A DNA stretch of 6,439 nt from Candidatus Odinarchaeia archaeon (GTDB taxonomy: Archaea > Asgardarchaeota > Odinarchaeia > Odinarchaeales > Odinarchaeaceae): NCBI GenBank assembly GCA_029856525.1, contig JAHQXC010000071.1:1-6439 (forward strand). The letters run 5' to 3'. Positions 2,592 to 5,720 of this stretch are shown one piece after another. The position numbers and the translations under genes are program-made. The notes below the pieces were generated by a model that was not told the origin of the DNA, did no database searches, and worked only from the letters and a program-made list of their open reading frames with translations. The number at the start of each line of letters is the position of its first letter. Within the stretch, counting starts at the first letter, position 1.

Positions 2592-3839
2592 TTACCGTGA
2601 TTTTCTAACCACGCCGGTAAGCCAGTTAACCTCCTCGTCTGCGAAGTCGAAGTATTCTGCTAGTTTAGCGGCTTTACTAGGATTATTTTGAAAAATTATT
2701 TTAAGAAATGGGAGGAAAACAGAGTGTGCTTTTTTAGCGCTAACATGACATTTCAACTTTATTTTTAAACAAATATTTTCAACTAATTCCCTCTCCTTTT
2801 TCGAAGCGCTTAGAAGATTTATCCAAGAGGGAAACTGGTATTGTTTATACCCGTATTTATCGGTGACAGCTGATGAAACACCGGCTGTCATAAGAAGGAT
2901 GAAATATTTTAGGATACTCCAATTATTTGTTCGAATTATTTTAGATAGGAGTATATCCGCTTTTGAAAGGTAATCGTAGATGTTTTTAAGTTCCACCGGT
3001 GTTTTAGCGTGGAGATAAGCGTTTTCGGAAACCCATTTAAAGAACATATCATAGTCCATATCTACTGTGTTGAATGCTGCTCTAGCAGCCTCTAAGGTTT
3101 TAGCTCCGAAAAGCTGTTTTAACGCTTCGAAAACCTGCACGGTTCTATCACGGCTACCGGTGAAAACAATCTCGCTTTCACGTAAAACTTTCACACCTTC
3201 AGCGAAAAACTGTAGGTCGTTGATTGCGGAACGTATATCTCCGCCACTAGCTTCAGCTATCTTCTTCAAAGCAGCCTCCTCATATTCAACGCCTTCAAGT
3301 TCACAGATCTTTTTAAGAATATTTAATATACTGGCTGCGGTGACCCTCCTATACTGCACTGTTAGACATAAATCTCTTATAGGCTTCAAGTTTGGAGACC
3401 AAGGGTCGTTTGCCGTCATTATTATCGGGTTGACGGTGGATTTTAATATTTTAATAAGCTCGTTGATACCTCCTTTATCCTCGCTGCCTGAGATACCGTC
3501 AACTTCATCTATTAGTATTATTCTAATTTTCGAGGGGAGTAAGCTTGCCTGAATTGAAGCAGCTCCGACGATTTTTTTCATGCTTTCAGCGTTACGTTTA
3601 TCTGACGCATTTACTTCGAGAATGTCAAGGTTTAGCTGTTGAGCTATAGCGTGAACTGTTGCAGTTTTACCTGTCCCAGGAGGTCCGTATAATAAAAGTG
3701 CTTTTTTATCACGTTTACCGTTAATCCAGTCTTCAACCCATTTTAAGACTTCTTTAGCTTTAGCGTTATTACCTGTTATCTCATCAACTGTTTTAGGCCT
3801 GTATTTTTCCGCCCATAGTTGTTCGGCTCTAGCTATCAT
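2592..3839 (-). CDS. rfcL: Replication factor C large subunit (clamp loader)
   Basis: 415 aa. RFC box LWAEKYRPK, Walker A GPPGTGKT, NASD motif, Walker B ILIDEVDG, IIMTANDPW and GDIRSAINDLQ. The SRC motif of small subunits is absent, and the long C-terminal collar domain is that of large subunits. Weak SD-like AGGCGA upstream (3849-3844). Confidence 0.96.
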   Translation of the reverse strand: MIARAEQLWAEKYRPKTVDEITGNNAKAKEVLKWVEDWINGKRDKKALLLYGPPGTGKTATVHAIAQQLNLDILEVNASDKRNAESMKKIVGAASIQASLLPSKIRIILIDEVDGISGSEDKGGINELIKILKSTVNPIIMTANDPWSPNLKPIRDLCLTVQYRRVTAASILNILKKICELEGVEYEEAALKKIAEASGGDIRSAINDLQFFAEGVKVLRESEIVFTGSRDRTVQVFEALKQLFGAKTLEAARAAFNTVDMDYDMFFKWVSENAYLHAKTPVELKNIYDYLSKADILLSKIIRTNNWSILKYFILLMTAGVSSAVTDKYGYKQYQFPSWINLLSASKKERELVENICLKIKLKCHVSAKKAHSVFLPFLKIIFQNNPSKAAKLAEYFDFADEEVNWLTGVVRKSR

Positions 3840-3908
3840 AGAATCGCCTAGTTTAAATAATGTTTAATTTTCTTATTTACGTTATTATATTGTTTTTTAT
3901 TTAAGAAG

Positions 3909-3925
3909 ACCGATAAATTTAAAAG
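3909..3925 (+). promoter_or_regulatory. BRE-TATA promoter candidate P1 upstream of tfb
   Basis: ACCGATAAA-TTTAAAAG matches the canonical archaeal ACCG-N5-TTTA arrangement. Predicted start site about 3948-3952. Confidence 0.6.
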
Positions 3926-3930
3926 GCATA

Positions 3931-3947
3931 ACCGTAATATTTATATA
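3931..3947 (+). promoter_or_regulatory. BRE-TATA promoter candidate P2 upstream of tfb
   Basis: ACCGTAATA-TTTATATA with a perfect TTTATATA box at 3940-3947, 22 bp downstream of P1. Predicted start site about 3970-3973. Confidence 0.65.
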
Positions 3948-3958
3948 TGAGAATGTGA

Positions 3959-4054
3959 GCTGGCGCTTAGTATATATTTTAGTTAGAGTTCTTTATCAAC
4001 TTTTCTCTGCCGAGTTGATATTAGCTCTATCTAAAGTATATACTAAACACCAGC
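3959..4054 (+). other. 96-nt long imperfect hairpin / inverted repeat in the rfcL-tfb intergenic region (putative tfb 5' leader structure)
   Basis: Pairings: GCTGG 3959-3963 / CCAGC 4050-4054; 16 bp 3967-3982 / 4031-4046; 7 bp 3984-3990 / 4023-4029; 9 bp 3994-4002 / 4012-4020; 9-nt loop 4003-4011. 38 pairs in total, three of them G.U on the + strand. The structure is directly visible; its function is unknown. Confidence 0.85.
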
Positions 4055-4056
4055 AG

Positions 4057-4072
4057 TATTAATATTTACGGT
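4057..4072 (-). promoter_or_regulatory. Minus-strand BRE-TATA-like element facing P1/P2 (possible rfcL or antisense promoter)
   Basis: Minus strand reads ACCGTAAA-TATTAATA, a near mirror of P2 (ACCGTAATATT at 3931-3941). It overlaps the tfb SD. Confidence 0.4.
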
Positions 4073-4074
4073 GA
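4070..4074 (+). promoter_or_regulatory. Shine-Dalgarno site of tfb
   Basis: GGTGA 6 nt upstream of the ATG at 4081, indicating a leadered mRNA. Confidence 0.7.
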
Positions 4075-4080
4075 ATTTAT

Positions 4081-5022
4081 ATGTCTAAAGTTTTAGAGAA
4101 AAAAGATAAAAATCAACTGGGCTTAGCTTGCCCAGAGTGCGGTAGCACTGAGCTTATTCGCGATTATACTAGAGGGGAGAGTATTTGCAGTAACTGCGGT
4201 TTAGTTATCCATGAACATATGGTTGACTCAGGCCCGGAGTGGAGGGCTTTCACAGCTGAAGAGAAAAATCAGAGAAGCAGAGTCGGCGCGCCGACCACTT
4301 TTAGAATGCCGGATAAAGGTTTAAGCACAATGATAGGTAAACAGAACACAGACAGCTTCGGTAAAAAACTATCAGCTAAGAAGAGAAGATTAATGTATCG
4401 TTTAAGAAAATGGAATTTTAGAAGCATAATACACTCGTCTAAGAGAAGAAACCTAGCTCACGCCATGTCGGAGATGCAGCGGCTGGCCAGTCAAATGGGT
4501 ATCTCACGTGATATAATGGAGACCGCGGCAGTCCTATATAGGAAAGTTATTGAAAACGGTTTAACCAGAGGCAGATCAATAGATGCTATGATAGCCGCCT
4601 CCCTGTACCTTGCATGCCGGCTTCACAATTTACCAAGACCGTTAGATGAAATAGAACAGTACTCACGGTTCGATCGAAAAGAATTAGGGTACTGTGTTAG
4701 AACAATTCTATCTAAGCTTAAAATAAAAGTCCCCAGAGCTAAGGCGACCGACTTCATACCAAGATTCGGTAACGAGCTCGGACTCTCAGCTAAAACACAG
4801 AGAACAGCTATTAAAATACTAGAGCAGGCTAGAGAGAAGGGGTTAACCAGCGGTAAAGATCCTACAGGATTAGCTGCAGCAGCCCTCTACATAGCTTCGA
4901 TGCTTGAAGGGGAGAGGAGAACTCAATCAGAGGTCTCCAGGGTCGTCGCTGTAACAGAGGTGACGGTTAGAAACAGATACAGGGAGCTTATAAGAGATCT
5001 TAACATTCAAATAGGACGTTAA
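4081..5022 (+). CDS. tfb: Transcription initiation factor IIB (TFB), possibly an alternative paralog
   Basis: 313 aa. Zn ribbon CPEC...CSNC, B-reader GPEWRAF, DKGLST, two cyclin repeats with RGRS and GKDPTGLAAAALYIAS, and the BRE-binding helix-turn-helix TQSEVSRVVAVTEVTVRNRY. Confidence 0.98.
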   Translation: MSKVLEKKDKNQLGLACPECGSTELIRDYTRGESICSNCGLVIHEHMVDSGPEWRAFTAEEKNQRSRVGAPTTFRMPDKGLSTMIGKQNTDSFGKKLSAKKRRLMYRLRKWNFRSIIHSSKRRNLAHAMSEMQRLASQMGISRDIMETAAVLYRKVIENGLTRGRSIDAMIAASLYLACRLHNLPRPLDEIEQYSRFDRKELGYCVRTILSKLKIKVPRAKATDFIPRFGNELGLSAKTQRTAIKILEQAREKGLTSGKDPTGLAAAALYIASMLEGERRTQSEVSRVVAVTEVTVRNRYRELIRDLNIQIGR

Positions 5023-5062: not shown

Positions 5063-5245
5063 ATGATATACCTTGTCGCAGCGGTAATCTTATTAATCAT
5101 AGCTGTGATCTTCACTCTATCACTATTAAGTGATCTACCTGAGAAAGATAACCTTAAACTGGGTAAAACCATTCCATTAACGATAATAGTGAGCCTAACA
5201 TTAGGCTTCGGATTGCATTTCCTTCTCCTAGCATTAGGAGTATAA
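5063..5245 (+). CDS. ost5: OST5/TMEM258-like two-transmembrane microprotein (oligosaccharyltransferase accessory subunit-like)
   Basis: 60 aa with two hydrophobic helices separated by a short charged loop (SDLPEKDNLKLGK). The C-terminal SLTLGFGLHFLLLALGV closely resembles the conserved second helix of human TMEM258 as recalled (SLFMGFGVLFLLLWVGI). GGTG SD-like at 5056-5059. An in-frame TAA directly upstream fixes the start. Confidence 0.7.
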   Translation: MIYLVAAVILLIIAVIFTLSLLSDLPEKDNLKLGKTIPLTIIVSLTLGFGLHFLLLALGV

Positions 5246-5478: not shown

Positions 5479-5670
5479 CCAGCCTCCTTTAATGGATAGG
5501 CTCCCCCACGCTTCATTCAATCCCGTCAATCTTCCATGAAAGCTTGCACGCTCAAGTGAAGATGATATAAAGTGCTCGAATATAATCGAGTATAACGGTC
5601 AACCTAGTGGCTTAAACACTCTACCTGTTCGAAGCTGAAAACACCGCATCATTTATGAGCTGGCGGGTAC
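5479..5670. ncRNA. Candidate structured non-coding RNA or regulatory UTR (family and strand undetermined)
   Basis: No credible protein-coding ORF. 88/192 nt are G+C (46%), versus 26/111 (23%) in the 2481-2591 spacer and 10/50 (20%) in 5671-5720. Several local hairpins and a potential terminal CCAGC/GCTGG pairing. Confidence 0.35.
5643..5659 (+). promoter_or_regulatory. BRE-TATA-like element upstream of the 5721 gene
   Basis: ACCGCATCA-TTTATGAG has the same ACCG-N5-TTTA spacing as P1/P2 but a weaker TATA. Predicted start about 5683. Confidence 0.35.
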
Positions 5671-5720
5671 ATATAGAAAATAAGCTAATAGTAGACTAAT
5701 AATTATTATATGGTGGTATT

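Follow-up and report, generated by a model that had tools for sequence, protein, structure and literature searches.

Introduction

Why does a 96-nt inverted repeat stand directly in front of a gene for a basal transcription factor in an uncultured Asgard archaeon, and does it act as RNA or as DNA? The repeat occupies part of a 241-nt spacer between the divergently oriented genes rfcL (minus strand) and tfb (plus strand) of a Candidatus Odinarchaeia archaeon. The window analyzed here is the whole 6,439-nt stretch of contig JAHQXC010000071.1, and all positions refer to it unless another locus is named; the assembly to which it belongs (GCA_029856525.1, designated G000) consists of 127 contigs totaling 1.32 Mb, with a completeness of 93%. 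A sequence-only reading of the window had proposed the foldback as an undescribed cis-regulatory RNA or cruciform in the predicted tfb leader.

To our knowledge, archaea have so far yielded very few cis-acting RNA elements, and the literature searched contained none that we could find for Asgard archaea. When the transcriptome of T. kodakarensis was published in 2014, leader-based regulation in archaea still lacked direct in vivo evidence (PMC4247193). We conclude below that the hairpin is most plausibly a new candidate cis-acting structure of the tfb leader, restricted to one genus.

The intergenic hairpin and its neighboring genes

Folded with RNAfold as plus-strand RNA, positions 3959–4054 formed a 96-nt hairpin with 38 pairs and a free energy of −43.5 kcal/mol. 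From the outside in, its helices comprise 5 bp, a C.A/G-C/C.A segment, 16 bp, a single U.U, 7 bp, a 3 × 2 internal loop, 9 bp, and a 9-nt loop, which is the same anatomy as that given in the sequence-only reading. The fold also bore out the three U.G pairs named there on the plus strand (3977/4036, 3989/4024, and 4002/4012) and the two outer C.A mismatches, which correspond to G.U on the minus strand, and the AGTATATA(T/C)T dyad described for each arm (3969–3978 and 4035–4044) was seen in the sequence. Dinucleotide shuffles of the plus strand had a mean energy of −15.6 kcal/mol (z −9.9), with none of 200 equal to the native fold, while the minus strand folded nearly as well as the plus strand (−42.5 kcal/mol, z −9.7). 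Folded as DNA, the two strands gave −19.8 and −22.8 kcal/mol. The hairpin is real and lies far beyond chance, as had been supposed from its length.

Three parts of the hairpin can be distinguished. The conserved core (3969–4044) contains 14 + 7 + 9 bp, and its non-Watson-Crick pairs in this genome are all U.G on the plus strand, except for the one U.U. The outer stem consists of a 5′ half (3959–3968; 5 bp, the C.A/G-C/C.A segment, and 2 bp), which is the least regular part, and a 3′ half (4045–4054); a homologous outer inverted repeat, changed in both arms, is present in the nearest outgroup, L057. The apical loop (4003–4011) has 9 nt here and at most 13 nt, in the congener G003, and its sequence is unrelated between species.

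The gene downstream of the hairpin, tfb (4081–5022, plus strand), encodes a protein of 313 aa with a Zn ribbon and two TFIIB repeats (Pfam PF08271, 9e-19; PF00382, 2e-43). The gene on the other side, rfcL (2592–3839, minus strand), encodes the replication factor C large subunit, with the Pfam AAA, Rad17, RFC lid, and RFC1 C-terminal domains. The genus has two TFBs. The tfb product differs at only 1–5 amino acids among five lineages and is the more conserved of the two paralogues, the other being 95.6–97.8% identical among lineages, so that the earlier description of tfb as encoding an alternative TFB is unsupported.

Further genes of the neighborhood were recorded in passing. A 60-aa ORF right after tfb (5063–5245) matches Pfam Ost5 (E 5.7e-7, 30.2 bits, cut-off 27.4), Ost5 being oligosaccharyltransferase subunit 5, and an Ost5-like ORF adjoins tfb in other Odinarchaeia lineages as well, at times on the opposite strand. 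A 366-aa ORF upstream of the MFS gene (228–1328) had no Pfam match at E 0.001. In the outgroup lineage L053–L055 (positions 1–2945 of that locus), the gene order is rfcL(+), MFS(+), tfb(+), as opposed to MFS(−), rfcL(−), tfb(+) in the window, and the Ost5-like gene is inverted and followed by an AdoMet synthase gene, which indicates local rearrangement around tfb.

The congener Ca. Odinarchaeum yellowstonii LCB_4, which has a closed 1.418-Mb chromosome, is a thermophile from a hot spring (PMC9246712), and thermophily was taken from this congener. A search of the 93% complete assembly for reverse gyrase (TIGR01054) gave nothing above the cut-off, with a best score of 146 bits that covered the topoisomerase part only; at this completeness, such a result falls short of proving absence. 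According to the nearest-neighbor model, the hairpin of the window's genome, which has its −43.5 kcal/mol at 37°C, retains about −10 kcal/mol at 75°C and reaches 0 at 90°C, and the hairpins of the other four lineages melt slightly earlier.

Conservation of the hairpin in the genus

Each of the three other species of the genus has a single copy of the spacer with the hairpin, at 83–89% identity. A fifth version came from L045, a metagenomic lineage obtained through look-ups of TFB variants (Logan/JGI), so that the alignment comprised five lineages, namely four genomes of the genus and L045, with G001 and L045 forming a close pair. These lineages have diverged widely at neutral sites: 183 of 247 four-fold degenerate columns (74%) in rfcL, tfb, and two small ORFs were variable, and the pairwise four-fold divergence in tfb was 0.39–0.57, apart from 0.10 for G001/L045. 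Other spacers in the window were barely alignable, with 0–14% invariant columns. The spacer at 5481–5720 is one of these and differs in this respect from the rfcL–tfb spacer; any RNA proposed there would be without sequence-level conservation in the genus.

Within the hairpin, variability followed the base pairs. Only 18 of the 80 paired columns (22%) were variable, and 9 of 60 (15%) in the core, as against 15 of the 20 unpaired columns (75%), which is the same rate as at four-fold sites (paired versus unpaired, Fisher P 2e-5). The comparison held inside the arms, where 6 of 9 internal-loop and bulge columns were variable compared with the 9 of 60 paired core columns (P 0.002), and in the apical loop 9 of 11 columns varied, with indels. 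All five gap columns fell at unpaired positions, and the 2-nt insertion of G003 pairs with a former bulge U and with an A>G change on the opposite arm. The arms as a whole were 3–5 times less variable than four-fold sites.

Standard pairs made up 90.5% of the cells over the five lineages, and helix 2, with four variable pairs, was still 100% paired. By a parsimony reading, about 10 of 17 stem changes kept the pair, compared with 14–17% expected from the local neutral spectrum, which is rich in transversions (binomial P 1e-4 to 3e-3). Pair 1/96 occurs as G-C, G.U, and A-U, and pair 3/94 as U-A, U.G, and G.U. Among these five sequences, two of them close, changes on both sides were found in one pair only, and the covariation values did not exceed the shuffle control, since 55–105 of 500 shuffles reached those observed. 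Two pair-breaking changes occur in the 16-bp stem of G001, and the outer part is disrupted in L045. A lack of compensatory conservation in relatives had been named beforehand as grounds for abandoning an RNA reading; what was found is that pairs are kept in about 10 of 17 changes and that a single pair has changed on both sides. The conserved structure and pair-keeping substitutions expected of structured leader RNAs in general are thus present, with a covariation signal within the range of the shuffles. To judge from the alignment, the hairpin is kept by selection in all five lineages, in a pattern that tracks base pairing.

One part of the stem is conserved more strongly than this pattern would require. 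Only 2 of 28 columns were variable in the mid-stem, the most conserved part of the hairpin, and wobble changes numbered 0 in its 14 pairs versus 6 in the other 16 core pairs. Helices 2 and 3 tolerate wobble changes, but the mid-stem, which contains the TATA-like dyads, shows none, and so its sequence is under constraint beyond pairing.

Promoter-like motifs and the predicted tfb leader

Directly upstream of the hairpin lies a nearly invariant block (3870–3958; 11 of 89 columns variable), which holds tandem BRE/TATA-like motifs and probably the rfcL promoter too. Its left part (3886–3910) is conserved without an assigned reason. The first TATA-like box, P1, is TTTAAAAG at 3918–3925, preceded by ACCGATAA, and the second, P2, is TTTATATA at 3940–3947, preceded by AACCGTAA; taken as units, the two motifs read ACCGATAA-ATTTAAAAG (3918–3925) and AACCGTAAT-ATTTATATA (3940–3947). 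With the rule that transcription starts about 23 bp from the TATA box (PMC4247193), the motifs predict starts near 3949 for P1 and near 3970, at the foot of the core, for P2. The tandem block stands 115–135 nt before the tfb start codon.

A P1/P2 pair of conserved sequence, with the same spacing and orientation, is found 140–220 nt before tfb in the outgroups L057, L059, and L053, and the only exception among the Odinarchaeia lineages examined is the sister genus g2, where one similar motif stands about 210 nt upstream. In L053–L055 the upstream gene is a co-oriented MFS transporter gene, so that only tfb needs a promoter there, which suggests that the P1/P2 motifs serve tfb. Since this conserved promoter-like block lies upstream of the hairpin, the hairpin would be within the tfb leader. 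Only 26 nt separate the hairpin from the start codon, too few for a TATA box plus a leader with a Shine-Dalgarno motif at the published spacing (PMC4247193). A transcript starting near 3949 would have 10 nt before the hairpin and contain all of it, and one starting near 3970 would have about 0 unpaired nt at its 5′ end.

The predicted leader of 110–135 nt would be unusually long, because the TATA-like motifs of this genome mostly begin 36–75 nt before start codons (−75 to −36); for its Shine-Dalgarno motifs, the peak is at −15 to −6. The 3′ arm contains the palindromic GTATATAC, whose position at −44 relative to the start codon is typical of promoters in the genome, and if this were the real core promoter of tfb, the hairpin would lie outside the mRNA. 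A promoter model built from 55 TATA-like sites of the genome gave no usable BRE signal, and only 10 tRNA genes were found for a promoter consensus.

The ribosome-binding signals of tfb are separate from the hairpin. A Shine-Dalgarno-like GGTGA (4070–4074) begins after the 15-nt gap noted earlier from the 3′ end of the hairpin and is 7 nt before the start codon, and in leader folds from either predicted start, positions 4055–4083 were unpaired at 75°C. A thermosensor stem that would hide the Shine-Dalgarno motif does not fit this arrangement, as both the motif and the start codon are outside the stem. RNA thermometers of the ROSE or fourU type were rejected for the same 15-nt distance and the unpaired state of 4055–4083 at 75°C. 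Anti-Shine-Dalgarno pairing of GGUG with CACC (3′ outer arm) or ACCG (3931–3934) was also rejected, as it amounts to only 4 bp, is not conserved in G002 or G003, and is absent from the 75°C folds.

Two other leader functions were considered and discarded. Termination by archaeal RNA polymerase needs an oligo-T tract, and the sequence after the hairpin, AGTATTAATATTTAC, has a longest T run of 3 in all five lineages, so that an intrinsic terminator or attenuator was dropped. A K-turn bound by L7Ae was dropped on reading the fold, in which the internal loops are CUU/UU and a single U.U, without tandem G.A. Separately, a mini-ORF (ATG AGA ATG TGA, 3947–3958) abuts the hairpin; its last codons are ATG and a stop (TGA, TAA, or TAG) in the five lineages, with two purine positions varying, and its conservation may be due to chance.

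A proposed role in the tfb transcript

The explanation that we prefer, and to which we give about an even chance of being right, is that the hairpin is a single-stranded structure kept by selection, most likely in the plus-strand tfb transcript, where it would make up most of a 5′ leader of about 110–135 nt. Transcription would start at one or both of the tandem BRE/TATA promoters, near 3949 and 3970, and the RNA would fold into a stem-loop at its 5′ end or within about 10 nt of it. The length of the AU-rich stem would keep the fold at hot-spring temperature; because the predicted stability falls to about −10 kcal/mol at 75°C, such a stem may have to be long in a thermophile.

The stem includes neither the Shine-Dalgarno motif nor the start codon. 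The hairpin would therefore not work by masking the ribosome site; it would act directly on the mRNA, either as a 5′-proximal block to 5′-to-3′ decay or as a protein-binding platform. Archaea do have 5′-to-3′ exoribonucleases, of the aCPSF2/RNase J group (PMC3792030). The extra sequence-specific constraint on the mid-stem AGTATATATTTTAG and its partner points either to a factor that binds there or to an additional role as DNA.

Palindromic DNA as an alternative

The same mid-stem also bears on an explanation at the DNA level, in which the locus is a palindromic control region whose arms are mirror-image BRE/TATA-like sites and whose fold is a by-product of dyad symmetry or a cruciform. We consider this a serious rival, though on balance rather unlikely. 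In one variant, the arms would be decoys for TBP/TFB and would block or tune the upstream promoters; in another, they would form a divergent promoter pair, with tfb driven from the 3′ arm and a leftward transcript from the 5′ arm. A symmetric regulator on the inner repeats is a further variant. Each arm does carry the TATA-like dyad, in the very stretch that has the fewest variable columns and none of the wobble changes of helices 2 and 3, the GTATATAC site at −44 is inside the usual range of the genome's TATA-like motifs, and the two strands fold near equally, with outer mismatches that favor the minus strand.

The pattern of change in the relatives is harder to reconcile with a protein site on duplex DNA. 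Because the arm spacing varies, with a loop of 9 to 13 nt, a purely duplex symmetric protein site is disfavored; in addition, one arm of G003 carries the 2-nt insertion and G001 has a 1-nt deletion in an internal loop, all at unpaired positions. Unpaired columns within the arms change at the neutral rate and their paired neighbors do not, and the stem changes are enriched in pair-keeping transitions, in contrast to the transversion-rich neutral spectrum. Furthermore, G001 has two changes in the TATA core of the 3′ arm, which are the same on several independent contigs. The joint change of both outer arms relative to L057 does not discriminate, since the half-sites of a homodimer would also change together.

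Which strand is folded

For the preferred reading, in which the structure forms in RNA, the strand matters. The non-canonical cells of the core comprised 13 G.U on the plus strand, 1 G.U on the minus strand, and 4 mismatches, and the outer 10 pairs comprised 30 Watson-Crick cells, 6 G.U on the plus strand, 10 G.U on the minus strand, and 4 mismatches. In none of the five lineages was the plus-strand fold less stable than the minus-strand fold, and RNAalifold gave −39.7 with a favorable covariation term for the plus strand and −35.5 with a penalty (+1.8) for the minus strand. The plus-strand neutral spectrum has a 2:1 excess of A>G/C>T over T>C/G>A, for which reason the plus-over-minus bias among wobble-forming transitions (9 versus 2) is not significant alone (P 0.23 after allowing for the neutral bias). 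Thus, of the sequence-only reading's view that the U.G pairs mark a structure kept at the RNA level on the plus strand, the part concerning the inner helices stood, and new changes in the relatives follow it, but the strand preference did not reach significance. The plus strand is favored but not proven.

The strand data also bear on the idea that the hairpin belongs to a separate small RNA transcribed from P1/P2, or to a minus-strand or antisense transcript, which we regard as quite improbable. A minus-strand RNA would fold at −42.5 kcal/mol, and the outer mismatches are G.U on that strand in all lineages, with one such C.A recurring in the outgroup L057. No oligo-T run follows the hairpin on either strand, however, and no room is left for a tfb promoter downstream of it, while the 13:1 ratio of core wobbles and the covariation penalty both speak against the minus strand.

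Distribution and copy number

The hairpin was treated as a family by means of a covariance model built from the five lineages, which found one match per genome in the four genomes of the genus and none in the other 147 of 151 Asgard genomes. In the sister genus g2, the divergent rfcL/tfb pair is kept with a spacer of about 290 nt, in which a comparable hairpin was not found. Three outgroup lineages (L057/L058, L059, and L053–L055) were reached through TFB clusters at 87–93% identity, and a metagenome scan with TFB for further orthologues returned one locus, cut at residue 4.

In the nearest outgroup, L057 (TFB 93% identical), and in L058, a 100-nt foldback lies at the same place (L057:1142–1241). 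It retains the outer inverted repeat GATTGGCG ... CGCCAATC, which differs from that of the window by changes in both arms and by one extra pair, and forms a perfect 8-bp outer stem GATTGGCG/CGCCAATC with one C.A mismatch and an interior that is mostly unrelated and weakly paired. At −22 kcal/mol (z −2.9), it is much weaker than the hairpin of the window. Only fragments are kept at the L059 locus, and the L053–L055 locus has a foldback of 11 bp + 6 bp. The covariance model had no match at the outgroup loci, and the likeness of L057 was established by alignment and inspection only. Since the sister genus and the three other Odinarchaeia lineages are without a comparable hairpin, the long hairpin is restricted to one genus and is labile outside it.

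Within the window's own genome, the hairpin stands alone. BLAST of a 136-nt stretch against this genome returned only the stretch itself and chance words of 14–34 nt. In a palindrome scan that covered all 1.32 Mb of the assembly and allowed 3–60 nt between in-register arms, the hairpin was the longest inverted repeat and the sole locus with at least 21 of 24 Watson-Crick arm pairs. At least 15 of 16 arm pairs were found at only 7 loci, and those besides the hairpin have folding energies of −12 to −22 kcal/mol. Among the runners-up are C65:19698–19746, C75:9967–10002, and C8:9622–9659, which pair at 15 of 16 arm positions and reach −14 to −22 kcal/mol on the better strand. A cmscan of the whole window against Rfam 15, on both strands and with E up to 1, gave no match, in agreement with the earlier statement that no known riboswitch or ncRNA family is recognizable, and a gapped pattern of the arm pair had no match in viral contigs.

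A dispersed repeat of the MITE kind, against which the sequence-only reading had proposed to search the genome, was rejected on these results, as BLAST, the palindrome scan, and the covariance model agree on one locus per genome across the genus. With its length of about 100 bp, near-complete dyad symmetry, terminal inverted repeats, and intergenic position, the hairpin does resemble such elements, and its long form is found in one genus only, with the interior replaced in the nearest outgroup. Nevertheless, that it is the relic of a MITE-like palindromic mobile element, or a neutral palindrome without function, seems highly improbable. It occurs once per genome, both here and in the congeners, occupies the same site in all lineages, shows no target-site duplication, has no counterpart in viral contigs, and is under apparent purifying selection; a neutral palindrome would be expected to decay at such divergence, whereas the arms vary 3–5 times less than four-fold sites.

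A chromosome-maintenance site, such as a replication origin element or a dif-like Xer site, is scarcely credible: although a single-copy, conserved, intergenic inverted repeat beside the replication gene rfcL is just what archaeal dif sites were originally found by (PMC2958812), there is no 11-6-11 unit around the arm dyads or a central repeat (by eye; criteria from PMC2958812), the central spacer varies from 9 to 13 nt, no skew switch was seen in the window, and the Cdc6_C matches (orc1/cdc6) of the closed congener G002 are at 503, 606, and 625 kb, a distance of 250 kb or more from its hairpin at 248.7 kb, with the LCB_4 chromosome, which we infer to be G002, permuted so that its putative origin is position 1 (PMC9246712). 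A terminus, considered because 248.7 kb is opposite "position 959350," was dropped, the published chromosome being permuted to start at 959350.

Relation to known leader structures

No comparable element for an archaeal tfb gene was described in the literature searched. Among bacterial systems, leaders of the ompA type carry a 5′-terminal stem-loop that stabilizes the mRNA against 5′-end-dependent decay. The tfb stem-loop is likewise predicted to begin no more than about 10 nt from the mRNA 5′ end, and it is upstream of the ribosome-binding site and separate from it, but its stem is far longer (38 pairs), AU-rich, and conserved in sequence at mid-stem, and its 5′ end is a predicted one. Two bacterial sigma factor genes, rpoH with its thermosensor and rpoS with its leader hairpin, have leaders that occlude the ribosome-binding site or the start codon. 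They share with tfb a long structured leader, predicted in the case of tfb, on the gene for a promoter-recognition factor, but the Shine-Dalgarno motif and AUG of tfb are outside the hairpin and unpaired at 75°C, and there is no homology.

In the primary transcriptomes of the hyperthermophiles T. kodakarensis (PMC4247193) and P. abyssi (PMC3849170), a minority of genes have leaders of 50–300 nt that are thought to be cis-regulatory. The Odinarchaeia host resembles these archaea in using Shine-Dalgarno motifs and mostly short leaders, but their long leaders were reported to be without strong predicted structure, whereas the predicted tfb leader consists mostly of one near-perfect hairpin whose pairing has comparative support. 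Its fixed position and single copy also set it apart from MITE-like repeats.

Implications

A more far-reaching version joins the two levels considered above into a feedback sensor, in which TBP and TFB bound to the dyads of the duplex arms, downstream of the real promoters, would throttle tfb transcription and the RNA hairpin would set the life of the mRNA or recruit a factor. We consider this combination improbable; if true, it would be an archaeal counterpart to the way in which leaders control bacterial sigma factor genes, and would occur among the prokaryotes closest to eukaryotes.

The reach of the preferred reading, a cis-acting hairpin in the tfb leader, is limited to one uncultured genus, outside which the structure is evolutionarily labile. 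If the hairpin controls the level of TFB, it would mean that a thermophilic Asgard lineage tunes its basal transcription machinery post-transcriptionally, and it would show how a structure of an AU-rich genome may survive 70–80°C by means of length and not of GC content.
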